64,000 nucleotides of DNA from Deltaproteobacteria bacterium. Its GTDB lineage: Bacteria > Desulfobacterota > DSM-4660 > Desulfatiglandales > HGW-15. The notes under the pieces were generated by a model that was given only the letters and a program-made list of their open reading frames with translations, was not told the origin of the DNA and searched no databases. The translations under genes were made by a program, and so were the position numbers. Positions 3,352 to 64,000 of this stretch are shown here, piece by piece. Within the stretch, counting starts at the first letter, position 1, and the number at the start of each line of letters is the position of its first letter. The stretch is taken from positions 80-64,079 of the forward strand of contig JAFDHO010000003.1 in NCBI GenBank assembly GCA_019308745.1. The letters run 5' to 3'.

Positions 3352-5261
3352 TTCTTTACTTCCTCGAAATCCGCATCCACCACATCCTCTTCTTTGGATG
3401 AATCACTGCTGCCGCCGGCAGAACCTGAAGCTGCTTGCTCGGCACCGGCCTGTCCACTGGCCTGAGCATACATGGCCTCCGCCAGCTTGTGGGAAGCCTG
3501 CGTTAATTCATCCGAGAGGCGCTTGATCTCTTCGGCATTGTCACCTTCCATGGCCTTTTTCAGGTTTTCTATGGCCCTATTGATATCAGATTTCGTGGAT
3601 TCGTCAAGTTTATCCCCGGCCTCCTTGATGGATTTTTCTGTCTGGTAGATAAATGAATCAGCCATGTTGCGTGCGTCCACCAGCTCTCTCTTCTTCCTGT
3701 CTTCTTCGGCGTGCAGTTCGGCGTCCTTGACGAGCTGCTGGATCTCCGCCTCGGAGAGACCGCTGGAGGCAGTGATCTTTATGGATTGCTCCTTCCCCGT
3801 TCCCAGATCCTTTGCAGAGACGTGAACGATGCCGTTCGCATCAATGTCAAAGGTCACTTCGATCTGTGGCACACCCCTGGGTGCGGGGGGTATCCCCACG
3901 AGTTGGAATCTCCCCAACGTCTTATTGTTGGCGGCCATCTCCCGCTCACCTTGTAGGACATGGATTTCCACGGCTGGTTGATTGTCGGCTGCCGTTGAAA
4001 ATACCTGGCTCTTTTTTGTGGGGATCGTTGTATTCTTTTCAATGAGTTTCGTGAACACGCCACCCAGGGTCTCTATACCGAGAGAGAGGGGCGTCACGTC
4101 CAGGAGAAGCACATCCTTCACCTCGCCCTTCAACACACCTCCCTGGATCGCCGCACCGATCGCAACGACTTCATCGGGGTTGACACCTTTGCTGGGTTCT
4201 CGGCCGAATACTTCTTTGACCTTTTGTTGTACTCTGGGCATGCGAGTCATGCCTCCAACGAGGATGACCTCGTCTATGTCATTAGCTTTCAAACCGGAAT
4301 CCTTGAGTGCTATATTGCAGGGGCCAACAACCCTCTCAACAAGATCGTCCACCAGGGCTTCCAGCTTGGCCCTCGTCAGCTTTATATTGAGGTGTTTCGG
4401 GCCGCTTGCATCCGCCGTGATAAAGGGGAGGTTGATATCGGTCTCCTGGGAGCTGGACAATTCCATCTTGGCCTTTTCAGCGGCCTCCTTCAATCTCTGC
4501 AAGGCCATCTTATCGTTTCGCAAATCAATACCCTGGTCCTTCTTGAATTCATCGGCCAGGTAGTCTACGATCCGTAGATCAAAGTCTTCGCCGCCCAAGT
4601 GTGTATCTCCGTTCGTAGACTTCACCTCAAAGACCCCTTCTCCTATTTCCAGGATGGAGATATCGAATGTTCCGCCACCAAGATCGAATACGGCAATCTT
4701 CTTGTCACCTTTCTTGTCCAGCCCGTAGGCGAGGGATGCGGCTGTGGGCTCGTTGATAATCCTCTCAACATTAAGCCCGGCGATACGACCCGCATCTTTG
4801 GTGGCCTGCCTTTGGCTGTCATTGAAATATGCCGGAACGGTGATCACGGCCTCCGTGACCTTTTCTCCGAGGTAATCCTCTGCGGTCTGCTTCATCTTTT
4901 GCAGGATCATGGCAGATATCTGTGCGGGGCTATAACTCTTTCCTCTAACCTCCACATGGGCATCCCCGTTTGAGGCCTTGACGATCTTATAGGGAAGCAC
5001 CTTGATGTCTTTTTGGACTTCAGGGGAGTCATATTTTCGGCCAATGAGCCTCTTGACGGCGAATATGGTGTTGTCAGGGTTGGTGATGGCCTGGCGTTTG
5101 GCTATCTGACCCACCAGCCTCTCCCCCTTTTCATTGAAGGCAACCATCGAAGGCGTGGTTCTGCTGCCCTCCGCATTGGCAATTACAACAGGATCCCCTC
5201 CCTCCATAACAGCTACACAGGAATTGGTTGTCCCAAGATCAATGCCTATTATTTTGCCCAT
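3348..5261 (-). CDS. dnaK: Chaperone DnaK (Hsp70)
   Basis: [17 protein letters not shown] and DLGGGTFD motifs; C-terminal VVDADFEEV. Confidence 0.99.
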
Positions 5262-5343
5262 TTTCTACCTCCTAAGATCATGTGCTCTATTGTGAGCGGA
5301 AATATTGAGTTGTTCAACTCTCTCTTAGGGCAACAGGCCGCTC

Positions 5344-5988
5344 TCAATCGACCCCTTCCCCCCTATCGCCCTCGCCCGAGGCCCTACCTCTGCTCACCAC
5401 CACCATGGCAGGACGGATCAGCCGCTGGTTAAAGAGATAACCCTTTTGCATCTCTTCCAATACCGTTCCGGGCTCAACCCCATCGTCTTCCCTTTCAGAT
5501 ACAGCGTGGTGATAGTTGGGATCAAAGGGCCTGTTTAGTGCTCCTATCTCTTCCAGCCCCGATTTGACCAGGGTATCCTTCAGCCCCTTCAAGGTAAGCT
5601 CCACTCCTTCCCTGAGCGCACTCAGGGAGTTGTTTGAACGGGCGTGGGAAATGGCCAATTCCAAATTGTCCACCACCGGAAGCAACTCTTTGACCAAGGA
5701 CTCATTGGCGTATTTGGCCAGTTCCGCCCTCTCTTTGCTGTTCCTCTTTTTCAGGTTTTCGATGTCGGCCTGGGAGCGGAGGTAAAGATCATAATTCCTT
5801 TTGGCTTCTTCCTGTATTTCCGCTATCTTTTCCATCAGTTCTGCCTTGGTCATCTTTTCCAGAGGCTTTTCTTTATGGTGTTGAACGTCCTCTTTGTCTC
5901 GGCTTTCTCTGATGTCGGCCCTCGCCATCTCGTCCTTGCTTTTCTCTTCTGCGGCTTTTGATTGCGCCTTGTGATCTCCGTTCACCAT
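5344..5988 (-). CDS. grpE: Nucleotide exchange factor GrpE
   Basis: LRSQADIENLKKR, LLPVVDNLE, FDPNYHHAV and QKGY...RLIRPAMVVV motifs; upstream of dnaK. Confidence 0.97.
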   Translation of the reverse strand: MVNGDHKAQSKAAEEKSKDEMARADIRESRDKEDVQHHKEKPLEKMTKAELMEKIAEIQEEAKRNYDLYLRSQADIENLKKRNSKERAELAKYANESLVKELLPVVDNLELAISHARSNNSLSALREGVELTLKGLKDTLVKSGLEEIGALNRPFDPNYHHAVSEREDDGVEPGTVLEEMQKGYLFNQRLIRPAMVVVSRGRASGEGDRGEGVD

Positions 5989-6072
5989 CGTTTACACCAA
6001 TCTGCTCCTTTTTGTGGATTGGGGACCCGGTAGGGGCAAGTGTGCACTATGAGAAAGATTTGATTATGGGAT

Positions 6073-6101
6073 ACGATAAGCATCGGAAAATGCTTTGTCA
6101 A
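6073..6101 (-). promoter_or_regulatory. Putative sigma70-type promoter of grpE-dnaK with a palindromic spacer
   Basis: Minus strand TTGACA-17 nt-TATCGT; AAGCAT-N6-ATGCTT at 6078-6095 fills the spacer. Confidence 0.5.
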
Positions 6102-6122
6102 GGAGAGCCCAATCAGGTTTTT

Positions 6123-6851
6123 TCAGTTATTTCTGAACTTTTTCCAGGCCTCGATCAGGTCTTCCACGGGGTCGGAAGGCCTTTCCCCTGAAGGAGGCGG
6201 AAGGGGGGAGAGGCTTCTGAGGTTGTGGATATGACGATCAATGATCTCGGCAAGCGAGTAGATAAGGCTGGGTGCATATTCCCGGGTAAGGTCCCGGGTT
6301 TGCCGGTCGTCACGGCCCGTAGGTTTGATAAACAGCCCGTCGGCCCCGGCCTTGAACATTTCAACCGCGTCGTCTATCATGCTCTTTCTGGTATAAAAAA
6401 CGGCGGGTACTCCCGGATAGGACCTCCTGACCCGATGGAGGTTTTCGATGCCGTACCTGCTGTTCTGGCCAACCAGATCACTGGCTCTCCTGAAGATACT
6501 CCTCCAGCCCTCGACAATGGCAAATAGCCTCTTCAGGAATTCATTGTTTCGGTCACCCTCGAAGGCATCAAGGCCCCCGTAAACTTCCCGGAGCGTCTTG
6601 ATACGAGAGGCCTGCTCTTCAAGCTCGACCATCGAAGGAATGGCCGGTTTCTTGACCTCGGGATCCTGCCCCCACAGGTCCAACAAGAACAGGAGGGGTA
6701 TCCTTTCGCCCAGCAACTCCCTGGCCTCCTCGAAGGTATAGGCTTGGAGGAATTCCAGCCCGGGGGACCTGGGGGCGATCTCCTGTCTTACGAGTTCGTG
6801 TTCGAAATCAGAGTCGTCAATGAAACAGATAATCAAGTCCATTTTACTCAT
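6123..6851 (-). CDS. Atypical CheY-like receiver-domain protein with a large internal insertion
   Basis: FIDDS acidic pocket, LLDLWG phosphoacceptor Asp, VFYTRK and GADGLFIKP; about 70 extra residues follow the Asp. Confidence 0.7.
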   Translation of the reverse strand: MSKMDLIICFIDDSDFEHELVRQEIAPRSPGLEFLQAYTFEEARELLGERIPLLFLLDLWGQDPEVKKPAIPSMVELEEQASRIKTLREVYGGLDAFEGDRNNEFLKRLFAIVEGWRSIFRRASDLVGQNSRYGIENLHRVRRSYPGVPAVFYTRKSMIDDAVEMFKAGADGLFIKPTGRDDRQTRDLTREYAPSLIYSLAEIIDRHIHNLRSLSPLPPPSGERPSDPVEDLIEAWKKFRNN

Positions 6852-6905
6852 TGGAAATTGTCTGATAATCGGGATTTGGAACTTGGAATTTCCCGTTCAT
6901 CAGGG

Positions 6906-7817
6906 CTAGGGGCCATCTTCCAGACCATGACCTGTAATTCGCTCCAATGCCTCCAGGTATCTCTCCCGGGTCTTTTGGACGATTTCTTCCGGAAGCCCGG
7001 GTGGAGGCGGCTTCTTTTCCCATCCAAGGGAGCTGAGATAATCCCTCAAGAATTGTTTGTCAAAGCTCTTTTGAGGGCCACCGGGGCAATAAGAGTCCAT
7101 TGGCCAGAACCTGGAACTGTCAGGGGTCATAACTTCATCTATCAAGATGACCCCGTCGTCCACGATACCAAATTCAAACTTCGTATCTGCGATGATAATT
7201 CCCTTCTTCTCGGCATATTCGCTTCCACGCTGATATATCCTCAGGCTCAAGGTCCTGACCTGCTCTGCCATGTCCCCTCCGAGTAACTCGACCGCCTTTT
7301 CAAAGGTGATGTTTTCGTCGTGTATGCCCTCTTCGGCCTTGGTACTGGGCGTAAAGATAGGTTCCGGCAGTTTTTGCGACTCGGCCAGGCCCCCCGGGAG
7401 AGGAATGCCGCATATACTGCCTCGCTCTTGATATTCGAGCCAGCCGGAGCCCGAGATATAGCCTCTCACTATACATTCAACGGGCAAGGGCCTTGCCTTT
7501 TTCACCAGCATGCTCCGCCCCTGGAGCTGGTTCAGGTACGAGGGACAGGGATCTGGGTACTCCGATGGGTCGGAGGACACGACGTGGTTTTCAACGAGTG
7601 ACCGGAGGTGATCAAACCAAAAGAGCGATATCTTGGTCAGGATCTTGCCCTTCTCGGGAATCGGATCATCCATGACGACATCGAAGGCTGAGATCCGGTC
7701 GCTTGCCACGATCAGGAAATGCTCGCCCACATCGTAGATGTCCCTCACCTTTCCCCTCTTGTAGAGCTTCAGATCCGGGAGTTCTGACTTTAGCATAGGC
7801 TCAGAGGTCGTTGGCAT
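6906..7817 (-). CDS. purC: Phosphoribosylaminoimidazolesuccinocarboxamide (SAICAR) synthase
   Basis: [36 protein letters not shown] and SFDKQFLRD motifs. Start set at ATG 7817, after GGAGGAGG. Confidence 0.97.
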
Positions 7818-62182: not shown

Positions 62183-62860
62183 ATGGCAAGCTGCGGGCAA
62201 AGGGCATTGGAAAAGATAGTCCAGGTCGACAACAACAGGAGACGGACAAGAGGGGCTCTGAGAAGGGCGGCGGACATCATCCTGTCAGGCGGTGTTGTCG
62301 CCTATCCAACAGAATCCTTCTATGGGCTGGCCGTCAATATTGAAAACGACAGTGCCATAAAAAAGCTTTACGAAATCAAGAAGCGTGAAGCAGACAAACC
62401 CATATTGATCCTTATTCCGTCCGCGGAAGACCTGCGAACCTATGTGGAAGAAACGCCGGAGGCTGCCTGTAAGCTCATTGAGGCGTTCTGGCCCGGGGGT
62501 TTGACCATCCTATTTCGATCTGCAATGTCCGTATCCCCCTTGCTCACAGCCGGGACAGGAAAGATCGGGATCAGACTGTCGAGTCATCCTGTGGCATCAG
62601 GTCTCGCCCGGGCAGTCGGCAAGGCCATCACGGGAACGAGCGCGAATATTTCCGGTCAGCCTCCATGCCAGGATGCCCGCCAGGTCGAGAAGACCATTGG
62701 TCGGGCTGTGGATCTCATATTGGATGGTGGCGCAACCCAGGGCGGGGGAGGATCTACCATTATCGATGTCACGGTAAGTCCTTCCGTGATCTTGAGACAA
62801 GGAATAGTGGGAAGGCAGGAGATCGAAAAGGTCTTGGGGAAAAGTCTCGCGGCGGCTTGA
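62183..62860 (+). CDS. tsaC: L-threonylcarbamoyladenylate synthase (YrdC/Sua5 N-domain)
   Basis: AYPTES.YGL, K.R...KP, FWPGGLT, TSANISG and STIID motifs. Confidence 0.92.
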
Positions 62861-63097
62861 TCCCCAGAATAGTAGCAGCGGAAGATGAGGGGTCTTTCGA
62901 TCTCCGTTGGTTTGGTCCTGAAAGACAGGGTCCTTTGGGTCAGGATATTTACTTAGAAATGTCGGGGCCTGTGTGTTTCGGACAGCGGACAGGGCCGTGG
63001 CAGCTATTGTCCGGTATGTCGACGGGAGGCTGAACATGGACAGGATCCGGCGCAGATACGGTTGAGCAATTAGAGCCAAAGGGGAGCAAGAATTCCC

Positions 63098-63126
63098 TTG
63101 ACAGATAAAGAGAGAAGTGAGAATGT
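63098..63126 (+). promoter_or_regulatory. Putative promoter of the Tyr leader/acyl-CoA ligase transcript
   Basis: TTGACA (63098-103), 17-nt spacer ending in TGn, then GAATGT. Confidence 0.5.
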
Positions 63127-63163
63127 ATTTAAACAGAATTAGGATGACTTAGAGAGAACCTAG

Positions 63164-63250
63164 ATGCAAAGCATGATGATCAATCAATCCGGGCAAGCAT
63201 ATTATTACTATTACTACGTGAGAGGAGAAGTCTGCCCATGGTTTGATTGA
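63164..63250 (+). CDS. Tyrosine-rich attenuator leader peptide MQSMMINQSGQAYYYYYYVRGEVCPWFD
   Basis: Six consecutive Tyr codons, TAT TAT TAC TAT TAC TAC (63200-63217). Alternative ATGs at 63173 and 63176. Stop lies 19 nt before the terminator stem. Confidence 0.85.
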   Translation: MQSMMINQSGQAYYYYYYVRGEVCPWFD

Positions 63251-63267
63251 TGTATTCATTTGTGGTT

Positions 63268-63306
63268 AGAGGCCGTGGGCAGCATCAAGCCCACGGCCTT
63301 TTTTTT
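63268..63306 (+). terminator. Attenuator terminator (3:4 helix)
   Basis: AGGCCGTGGGC-AGCATCAA-GCCCACGGCCT running into a T8 tract (63299-63306). Confidence 0.92.
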
Positions 63307-63407
63307 AGCCCGTTGGCCCTTGGCTATGGCACGGCAGTAAGGGAGAAGAGCAGACGGGCCTGCTCGGATTGAGGAAGGAGAAAAGGCACGGAAGGGTGGT
63401 AAGAAAG

Positions 63408-64000
63408 ATGATTATTACGGAAATCTTGGAGAGAAACGCAAGGTGTTACGGTCAAGAGACGGCCCTCGTGGAGAGGGACCCGCAAAGGAACAGGAGGAGG
63501 CATATCACCTGGGAAGAGTTTGAGGAAACGGCCAACAGAGTAGCGAGCGCACTGATTCAAAGGGGGGTTGAAAAGGAGGACAGGGTCATGCTGCTCATGA
63601 GGAATTGCCTTGAATGGCTTCCCCTCTATTTTGGCATACTCAAGACCGGGGCATGGGCCGTACCCCTGAACTTTCGCTTTACTCCGGAAGAAATAGCTTA
63701 CTGCGCAGAGGTCTCCGAGGGGAAGACCTTGATCTTCGGTGAGGAGTTTACAGGCGCCATCAGCGAGATCAAAGGCAGACTGGGAAAGGTCAAGGATTAC
63801 GTCTGCGTGGGTCTTGAGGAGGGCTCCCCCCTCTTTGGGGAACGCTTTGAGGACTTTTTGGACAGCGGAAGCAGTGAAAGGCCCGGGGGGCAAATCAGCC
63901 TCCTGGACGATGCAGCCCTCTACTTCACTTCAGGGACCACAGGCATGCCGAAACCGGTCCTCCTTACCCACAGAAACCTTGAATTCTCCTGCGTCGTTGA
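63408..64000 (+). CDS. Acyl-CoA synthetase / class I adenylate-forming enzyme (5' part, runs off the window)
   Basis: MIITEILERNARCYGQETALVE..., N..EWLP.YFGILKTGA.AVPLNFR, and AMP-binding motif YFTSGTTGMPK. Not in the supplied ORF track because it has no stop in the window. Confidence 0.92.
   Translation, partial: MIITEILERNARCYGQETALVERDPQRNRRRHITWEEFEETANRVASALIQRGVEKEDRVMLLMRNCLEWLPLYFGILKTGAWAVPLNFRFTPEEIAYCAEVSEGKTLIFGEEFTGAISEIKGRLGKVKDYVCVGLEEGSPLFGERFEDFLDSGSSERPGGQISLLDDAALYFTSGTTGMPKPVLLTHRNLEFSCVV

Follow-up and report, generated by a model that had tools for sequence, protein, structure and literature searches.

Why should six consecutive tyrosine codons stand in a short reading frame directly upstream of a gene for an acyl-CoA ligase? 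The question is raised by a stretch of 64,000 nucleotides (nt) from contig JAFDHO010000003.1 (assembly GCA_019308745.1) of a deltaproteobacterium of the Desulfatiglandales, referred to here as the window. Positions 63164–63306 of the window hold this reading frame, a set of mutually exclusive RNA helices and an intrinsic terminator. We consider it quite probable that this element is a ribosome-mediated transcription attenuator, which reads the charging of tyrosine transfer RNA (Tyr-tRNA) and has been recruited to a ligase that would activate aryl acids. Judged from its predicted structure, the leader probably switches the ligase on when tyrosine is short.

The leader and its competing helices

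An earlier note on this DNA had described a leader open reading frame (ORF), six Tyr codons, three helices (1:2, 2:3 and 3:4) and a T tract, and all of these were recovered at the positions that it had given (Table 1). Helix 1:2, with 16 pairs, joins ATCAATCAA (63179–63187) to TTGATTGAT (63243–63251) and GGGCA (63191–63195) to TGCCC (63233–63237). Helix 2:3 joins 63232–63244 to 63270–63282 through 13 pairs, three of them G-U as paired by hand, and has an energy of −20.5 kcal/mol when evaluated alone. Helix 3:4 is formed by GGCCGTGGGC and GCCCACGGCC together with flanking A-T and G-T pairs, giving a G+C-rich hairpin (63268–63301) that is followed by eight T; the terminator stem and T tract of the earlier note are confirmed, with 13 pairs once the flanking pairs are counted. 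The minimum-energy fold of the element holds helices 1:2 and 3:4 (−55.7 kcal/mol, z = −4.46), and none of 200 shuffled sequences folded as well. When the three regions were folded alone, they reached −21.8 (1:2), −23.3 (2:3) and −26.7 kcal/mol (3:4).

For folds with a ribosome in place, we masked a footprint of 30 nt and ended the transcript at 63288, at which point segment 3 has emerged and segment 4 has not yet been made. When any one of Tyr codons 1 to 4 occupies the A site, the stalled ribosome covers segment 1 and the best masked fold contains helix 2:3. With the ribosome masked at the stop codon, helix 2:3 is absent and segment 3 is free for the terminator; the ribosome-free transcript forms helix 1:2 and not 2:3, again leaving segment 3 free. 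Segment 2 starts 14 nt past the last Tyr codon and a ribosome at the stop codon covers it, in agreement with the register proposed in the earlier note. Clustered codons, a terminator before the gene, mutually exclusive helices and a matching register of stall and stop were all found by computation, and the trp/his/pheA logic that had been suggested for the locus holds on every computable point, namely the masked folds, the pairing within the leader family and the retention of the Tyr run in a near-identical relative.

We propose the following course of events. Transcription would start downstream of the TTGACA at 63098, and the leader, about 25 codons long, would be translated by a ribosome. 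With charged Tyr-tRNA at hand, the ribosome would reach the TGA in segment 2, helix 3:4 would pair and transcription would terminate at the T tract; if no ribosome is loaded, helix 1:2 would form, helix 3:4 would pair and termination would occur at the same place. When Tyr-tRNA is scarce, the ribosome would stall as soon as it enters the run of six Tyr codons, at the first of them, and cover segment 1, helix 2:3 would pair before segment 4 is made, and the polymerase would read into the acyl-CoA ligase gene.

A 5410-nt contig from the public run X1, which is another metagenome, is about 93% identical to this locus and carries the same leader before the same ligase; over 1040 bases it differs by 75 letters and 2 gaps. 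Six changes fall in the 143 bases of the leader (63164–63306): 63164 A>G and 63166 G>A, by which the first ATG is lost, one in an Ala codon, two just past the stop codon, and 63202 T>C, the sole change in the Tyr run, which is synonymous (TAT>TAC). None falls in segment 2, in the terminator or elsewhere in the Tyr run. The first 80 bases of the spacer (63307–63386) bear 23 changes (21 substitutions and 2 indels) and form the least conserved stretch; the difference between leader and spacer (6/143 versus 23/80) has a Fisher p value of 3.8e-7 for partitions that were chosen after the data had been seen. Between the leader and the ligase coding sequence the comparison gives 6/143 versus 42/614 (p = 0.34), and the stretch upstream of the leader, 62961–63163, differs at 6 of 203 places. 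Still further upstream, between tsaC and the conserved region before the leader, 2504 other bases in X1 replace 133 bases of the window (62827–62961). Because this insertion parts tsaC from the leader, the terminator is not that of tsaC. In addition, the junction of leader and ligase is evidently not an assembly artefact, because an independent contig from another run has the same junction. A further run, X2, gave two short contigs (195 and 202 nt).

Because the X1 contig reads GTA in place of the first ATG (63164–63166), the start of the leader is more likely the ATG at 63173 or 63176, and these two starts match the family consensus M..NQS.Q. The 28 codons of the earlier note are correct when counted from the first ATG, and the likelier predicted length is 25 or 24 codons. 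The Ile/Thr frame of the Tyr run was rejected on reading it by hand, with stops present and no usable start, and an antisense ORF at 63149–63259 was set aside as a by-product.

Table 1. Features of the leader locus, in window coordinates
Feature	Position	Strand	Basis or remark
tsaC (L-threonylcarbamoyladenylate synthase), upstream gene, outside the element	62183–62860	+	TIGR00057, 183.3 bits against a cut-off of 123.2
TTGACA, likely −35 box of the leader promoter	63098–63103	+	Read from sequence
Leader ORF MQSMMINQSGQAYYYYYYVRGEVCPWFD	63164–63250	+	28 codons from the first ATG; stop TGA (63248–63250) inside segment 2
Six tandem Tyr codons TAT TAT TAC TAT TAC TAC, regulatory cassette	63200–63217	+	Sequence
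Segment 1, 5' arm of helix 1:2	63179–63195	+	Folds and family pair count
Segment 2, partner of segment 1 (protector) or of segment 3 (antiterminator)	63232–63251	+	Folds and family counts
Segment 3, 5' arm of the terminator and 3' arm of the antiterminator	63268–63282	+	Folds and family counts
Segment 4 and eight-T tract (63299–63306), intrinsic terminator with segment 3	63289–63306	+	13 pairs, 9 of them G-C; loop of 8
Spacer from terminator to ligase start, poorly conserved	63307–63408	+	X1 comparison; promoter scan
Start of the acyl-CoA ligase gene (ANL superfamily, 524 amino acids)	63409–64000	+	Gene continues past the window to contig position 65061

Related leaders in the genome and in the order

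The genome of the window (G000; 418 contigs, 91.5% complete, 5.85% contamination) contains a paralogous leader on contig C300 (L002; minus strand, 1637–1501), with the same scaffold and terminator and a mean column identity of 78%. At the position of the Tyr run this paralog carries the cassette LFFGFYFW; its peptide is MTMQNINQSGLFFGFYFWGRRLPMD and its promoter reads TTGACA-17-GATAAT. It precedes a shikimate-kinase-like gene (aroK) and aroC, which encodes chorismate synthase (403.8 bits against a cut-off of 321). The frame through segment 2 encodes CPWFD versus LPMD in the two leaders, and the RNA is identical; because the same RNA is kept with a different peptide, selection acts on the RNA and not on the peptide.

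From two seeds, the leader of the window and its C300 paralog, we built a covariance model, R1; the score of the former is thus given by construction, and independent evidence for its membership comes from how closely it resembles 29 members from other genomes (alignments A1 and A2). The shared scaffold reads AATCAATCC.GGC ... CTGCCCATGG.TTGAT ... GCCGTGGGC ... GCCCACGGC-T(n), and the loop of helix 1:2 holds the cassette of aromatic codons. R1 has matches in 92 of the 151 genomes of the order, this one included (E≤0.1), and in a sample of 151 genomes from the phylum it matches 7 at E≤0.001, of which 4 lie outside the order. Among the 31 best members (A2), helices 1:2 and 3:4 are paired in 85.9% of cells (slid controls reach 52.1% or less), both partners having changed in 10 of the pairs, and helix 2:3 is paired in 88.9% (slid controls 49.4% or less), both partners having changed in 2; because A2 was fitted to a model that includes helices 1:2 and 3:4, and because the sequences are close kin, these counts overstate the independent support. 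Rfam gave no match at the gathering score (the best was Atu_C8, 23 bits against 50) and no T-box or other further match at E≤10 among the matches listed, and five leader loci had no Rfam match at E≤0.01.

For the genes behind these leaders, we read 74 R1 hits outside this genome under a fixed classing rule: 29 fetched automatically, 5 from outside the order and 40 weaker ones chosen by hand, mostly second or third hits per genome, out of about 100 that had not been fetched automatically. Downstream classes were assigned by our own sequence motifs, with confirmation by Pfam or NCBIfam hidden Markov models (HMMs) for representatives only. Cassettes of mixed Phe, Tyr and Trp codons precede aroK, aroC, an aroA'-type aldolase or DAHP synthase in 33 of 36 cases. 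Tyr-type cassettes precede other genes in 9 of 11 cases, namely those of an MBL-fold protein of about 310 amino acids (5), an HGD-D-type dehydratase (2), which comes with a BcrAD-type activator, and an NDP-forming acyl-CoA synthetase (2); the remaining two stand before an aldolase and before aroK-aroC. The 13 Phe-type cassettes precede a long or short MBL-fold protein (4), aroK (2), aroC (2), an aminotransferase (1) or a contig end (1), and three of them (L083, L087 and L102) precede genes that look chorismate-mutase-like by eye, a call made without an HMM and by the motif rule for L102 only. Hits that match the terminator part alone precede trpE or trpD. Pure-Tyr cassettes occur elsewhere in the R1 family, mostly before genes outside the shikimate pathway, like that of the window. 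Comparison shows the leader of the window to be a lineage-specific copy of an order-wide aromatic leader, usually of mixed Phe, Tyr and Trp codons before aroK-aroC, whose cassette has been changed to pure Tyr.

Two loci outside the order, with family matches that fall below curated cut-offs, carry such leaders as well. In genome G228, an R1-family leader with the cassette WGWWW is followed by iorA-like and iorB-like genes, a Liv-type permease, an ABC ATPase and two PaaK-like ligases, and in genome G156 two tandem Tyr leaders precede one NDP-forming acyl-CoA synthetase. The MBL-fold protein, with Lactamase_B and ODP matches, recurs behind Tyr-type or Phe-type leaders at L063, L067, L072, L078, L082 and L280; its long forms at L050, L064 and L099 are fused into proteins of more than 800 amino acids, and in two genomes a FadB-like protein follows the MBL-fold gene. 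Orthologues of the MBL-fold and HGD-D proteins that are linked to Tyr leaders were not found in the genome of the window, where the best matches are 24–27% identical.

This organism probably employs leader-peptide attenuation for aromatic pathways in general. A genome scan for terminators with leaders found the leader of the window and one on contig C316 but missed both leaders on C300, and so it is not exhaustive.

The second leader of C300 lies on the opposite strand (plus, about 1760–1990) and is a divergent Trp leader with a WWW run, MKRVSKKKSFSLRHWWWLNSC, followed by two elements of hairpin plus T run and then by trpD. All three aromatic leaders of the genome share the terminator core GCCGTGGG...CCCACGGC. 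The leader on C316 (L272; minus strand, 3472–3540 of the reverse complement), MSQVTRIFFGFYFFFSGGSPVS, has a promoter TTGACA-17-TATAGA and a terminator and is not a member of R1. It precedes genes for a 531-amino-acid protein with a weak GNAT match (24.2 bits) and a family III CoA-transferase (381.8 bits), which are putatively under Phe/Tyr control and whose role is unassigned.

The ligase and the alternative explanations

The ligase starts at the ATG at 63409, 102 nt past the end of the terminator. Its product contains an AMP-binding domain (PF00501, 255.8 bits) and an AMP-binding_C domain (PF13193, 50.5 bits), which places it in the ANL superfamily and bears out the acyl-CoA ligase seen there in the earlier note. 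In 26 of 29 orthologous loci iorA follows the ligase, and two of the other three have at most 150 nt of downstream sequence. Because this pairing is conserved in relatives, and because the G228 and G156 loci point the same way, the context suggests that the ligase activates an aryl acid for indolepyruvate:ferredoxin oxidoreductase (IOR), encoded by iorAB. As an attenuator opens at amino-acid shortage and IOR is found under a Trp leader, the enzyme would run in the reductive, amino-acid-forming direction. The ligase would activate an aromatic acid such as 4-hydroxyphenylacetate, and IOR would reductively carboxylate the product to 4-hydroxyphenylpyruvate, which would be transaminated to tyrosine. 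That such a salvage of aryl acids is switched on by tyrosine starvation is, in our estimate, about an even bet.

Prephenate dehydrogenase (TyrA, PF02153) had no match in this 91.5% complete genome, and the control gave a match in 14 of 14 reference genomes. We do not read this as absence, because the assembly is incomplete and the contig with aroK-aroC ends early: this operon runs off its 6.5-kb contig, and in several relatives tyrA lies about 4 kb further on the same contig. Within the order, 84 of 151 genomes have PF02153 above the cut-off, and several genomes that are 97–99% complete have no match.

Several findings, gathered in this and the following paragraphs, weigh against the reading of the element as a Tyr-sensing switch for an aryl-acid ligase, and those that concern the enzyme bear on the alternative that survives best: that the attenuator is real and senses tyrosine, and that the ligase serves not tyrosine synthesis but the catabolism of fatty acids or hydroxycinnamates, or an unknown Tyr-linked pathway with MBL-fold and HGD-D genes. 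The ligase falls below every NCBIfam cut-off, the best match being a long-chain-fatty-acid--CoA ligase subfamily (431 bits against 476), and its nearest solved relatives are FadD5, feruloyl-CoA synthetase, FadD13 and 4-coumarate-CoA ligases. A PaaK-type ligase was rejected: with 524 amino acids versus about 430 the protein is of the FadD/4CL type, and TIGR02155 lies outside the 25 best of its 99 NCBIfam matches. The MBL-fold genes (once with a FadB-like gene behind) and the HGD-D dehydratase with its activator, which Tyr leaders precede elsewhere, resemble CoA-ester catabolism and do not obviously fit the salvage of aryl acids. In addition, the ligase is apart from iorAB in this genome, where iorAB lies on a separate contig, C97, behind a different upstream region and without a match to R1. 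However, opening at amino-acid shortage fits supply and not breakdown, the orthologues of the ligase are followed by iorA as described above, and a Trp-cassette leader of the same family precedes an operon of iorAB, transporter and paaK-like genes. We therefore regard a ligase outside tyrosine synthesis as unlikely.

The link between leader and ligase is itself restricted. The leader was found in none of 29 ligase loci of relatives (68–72% identity; by eye and with R1), in none of 80 metagenome ligase loci, where one hit of E 0.89 lies on the opposite strand downstream of the ligase (L129), and in none of 80 genome_contigs loci, where one hit of E 0.46 lies on the opposite strand (L238). Within 400 nt upstream of the 80 metagenome ligases, there was no Tyr run among the short ORFs rich in Phe, Tyr or Trp. 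The poly-Tyr leaders that the earlier note had proposed to look for before orthologous ligases are thus missing from all 189 loci at ≤73% identity. Orthologues accordingly lend the attenuator no support, which it draws from paralogous leaders and a single near-identical relative. Because no ligase locus at ≤73% identity carries the leader or a poly-Tyr ORF, the link is evidently young and narrow. Eighteen of the 29 ligase loci (L004–L032) have TAGCT-N6-TAGCT before the ligase instead, 17 of them at 28–38 nt and L029 at −93. Furthermore, the contig ends 513 nt past the ligase stop, so that further genes may be co-transcribed with it.

The motif TAGCT-N6-TAGCT, most commonly in the form TAGCTAAAATATAGCT, sits between a TTGACA promoter and the ribosome-binding site and could be an operator or a small hairpin; it was not found in the genome of the window in a search with an A/T-only spacer. 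About 180 nt past the ligase stop, outside the window (L001:3562–3577), there is a TGGCAC-N5-TTGCT, which we take to be a textbook sigma-54 −24/−12 promoter, within an A+T-rich stretch with no ORF of at least 60 amino acids; the contig ends 320 nt later. The iorA of this genome scores 789 bits with TIGR03336 (cut-off 650.9). Behind iorAB on C97 (L273; reverse complement, 3744–7544) lie a GntR-family regulator and a three-subunit 2-oxoacid:ferredoxin oxidoreductase, and a divergent response-regulator gene lies upstream of iorA.

The signals around the leader are the last of the unfavourable points. No Shine-Dalgarno-like sequence was found before the ATG at 63173 or 63176, there is no consensus −10 box, and 62850–63450 contains no full sigma-70-like site. 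Moreover, the terminator is always the stabler fold in the full-length RNA, and anti-termination must therefore be kinetic, as in known attenuators. A leader promoter and ribosome-binding site that are weak by consensus, together with an arrangement known only from this genome and one near relative, would also suit a second alternative, in which the ligase has its own promoter and leader and terminator stand alone, whether as a micropeptide gene, as a small RNA or as a duplicated aroK leader in decay. Trans-acting attenuator RNAs, which count in its favour, are known in rhizobia. However, in X1 the leader is conserved like coding sequence and no stretch is less conserved than the spacer, the Tyr run persists with a single synonymous change, and no promoter-like site lies in 63307–63408. 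A stand-alone unit is therefore very improbable.

Least credible of all, to the point of being negligible, is chance or artefact, that is, the terminator of an upstream gene beside a chance ORF, or a chimeric assembly: the assembly is fragmented and partly contaminated and the flanks of the ligase differ from those of relatives, many of which have a TPR-like gene upstream, unlike tsaC here (as seen by eye in the sequence, with no family scan or count), but X1 has the same junction with its extra bases between tsaC and the leader region, and the fold z score and the spread of R1 across the order speak against chance. A chance origin is also unlikely because poly-Tyr short ORFs are rare, the 5.06-Mb genome holding just two with a run of at least four Tyr codons, of which the leader is one, and because the scaffold is common to the paralog and 91 other genomes of the order.

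Known attenuators and the meaning of the cassettes

The Tyr-sensing attenuator that we favour resembles those of the Escherichia coli trp operon and of pheA (pheL), which, as described in PMC11802643 and PMC3082878, have a short leader where codons for the amino acid that is sensed stand in tandem, the helices 1:2, 2:3 and 3:4, a terminator before the gene and a stop codon that lets the finishing ribosome block segment 2. Unlike these, the leader of the window holds codons for tyrosine only (six of them), stands before an acyl-CoA ligase instead of a biosynthetic operon, has no Rfam match and draws its scaffold from a separate leader family of a Desulfobacterota order. In Corynebacterium glutamicum, the aroR leader before aroF (Neshat et al. 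2014) is a Phe-Tyr-Phe attenuator of the common aromatic pathway, and the aroR operon is unaffected by the availability of tyrosine, according to PMC11802643. It resembles the mixed R1 members before aroK-aroC; the leader of the window differs in its pure-Tyr cassette and its target outside the shikimate pathway. Control of E. coli aroF that depends on Tyr-tRNA is credited to Camakaris et al. 1980 in a table of PMC2659441.

A literature search, limited to partial texts, brought up no described poly-Tyr leader attenuator, and surveys of proteobacterial attenuators in subscription journals may hold more; this agrees with the view of the earlier note that Tyr attenuators are rarely reported. The Tyr T-box leaders of Firmicutes sense the charging of Tyr-tRNA through competing terminator and antiterminator helices as well, and they bind uncharged tRNA and need no translation of a leader. 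The leader of the window would share with them the sensing of Tyr-tRNA charging and the competing helices, and its Rfam search at E≤10 contained no T-box match.

As to the proposed role of the ligase, Methanococcus maripaludis makes aromatic amino acids from aryl acids via IOR (Porat et al., as given in PMC4162585), and rumen cultures synthesize phenylalanine from phenylacetate (PMC7356843). The M. maripaludis route leads from the aryl acid to a CoA ester and on to reductive carboxylation by IOR, which matches the job proposed for the ligase, and that pathway is archaeal, unlike the present one. We know of no report of an aryl-acid/IOR pathway controlled by leader-peptide attenuation, and none came up in the literature search, which was limited to partial texts.

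The mechanism itself is therefore known, and the leader is a member of an undescribed, widespread family that is absent from Rfam yet present in most genomes of an order. A textbook mechanism limits the surprise, and the value of the finding lies mainly in what the cassettes hint about the supply of aromatic amino acids in anaerobes. From a leader-peptide attenuator one can tell, with no experiment needed, to which amino acid a gene is tied; in the present case the cassette is pure Tyr, which is rare in print, and points to an acyl-CoA ligase, and sister leaders point to IOR operons and to enzymes of unassigned role. The locus is also a clean natural case of an attenuator re-targeted by a swap of its codon cassette, and it provides candidates for how strict anaerobes in sediments may gain tyrosine from aromatic acids.

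More tentatively, and at less than even likelihood, the scaffold may have been copied and re-coded across the order with Phe, Tyr, Trp or mixed cassettes so as to mark a regulon of aromatic starvation, which would include shikimate genes, the uptake and activation of aryl acids, IOR, the MBL-fold protein, the HGD-D dehydratase with its activator and, in this genome, the GNAT-like protein and family III CoA-transferase behind a Phe-rich leader. If such a regulon is real, these anaerobes would make tyrosine and phenylalanine from environmental aromatic acids by CoA-dependent routes undescribed in bacteria, and the Tyr leader of the window would be the switch for the first step.

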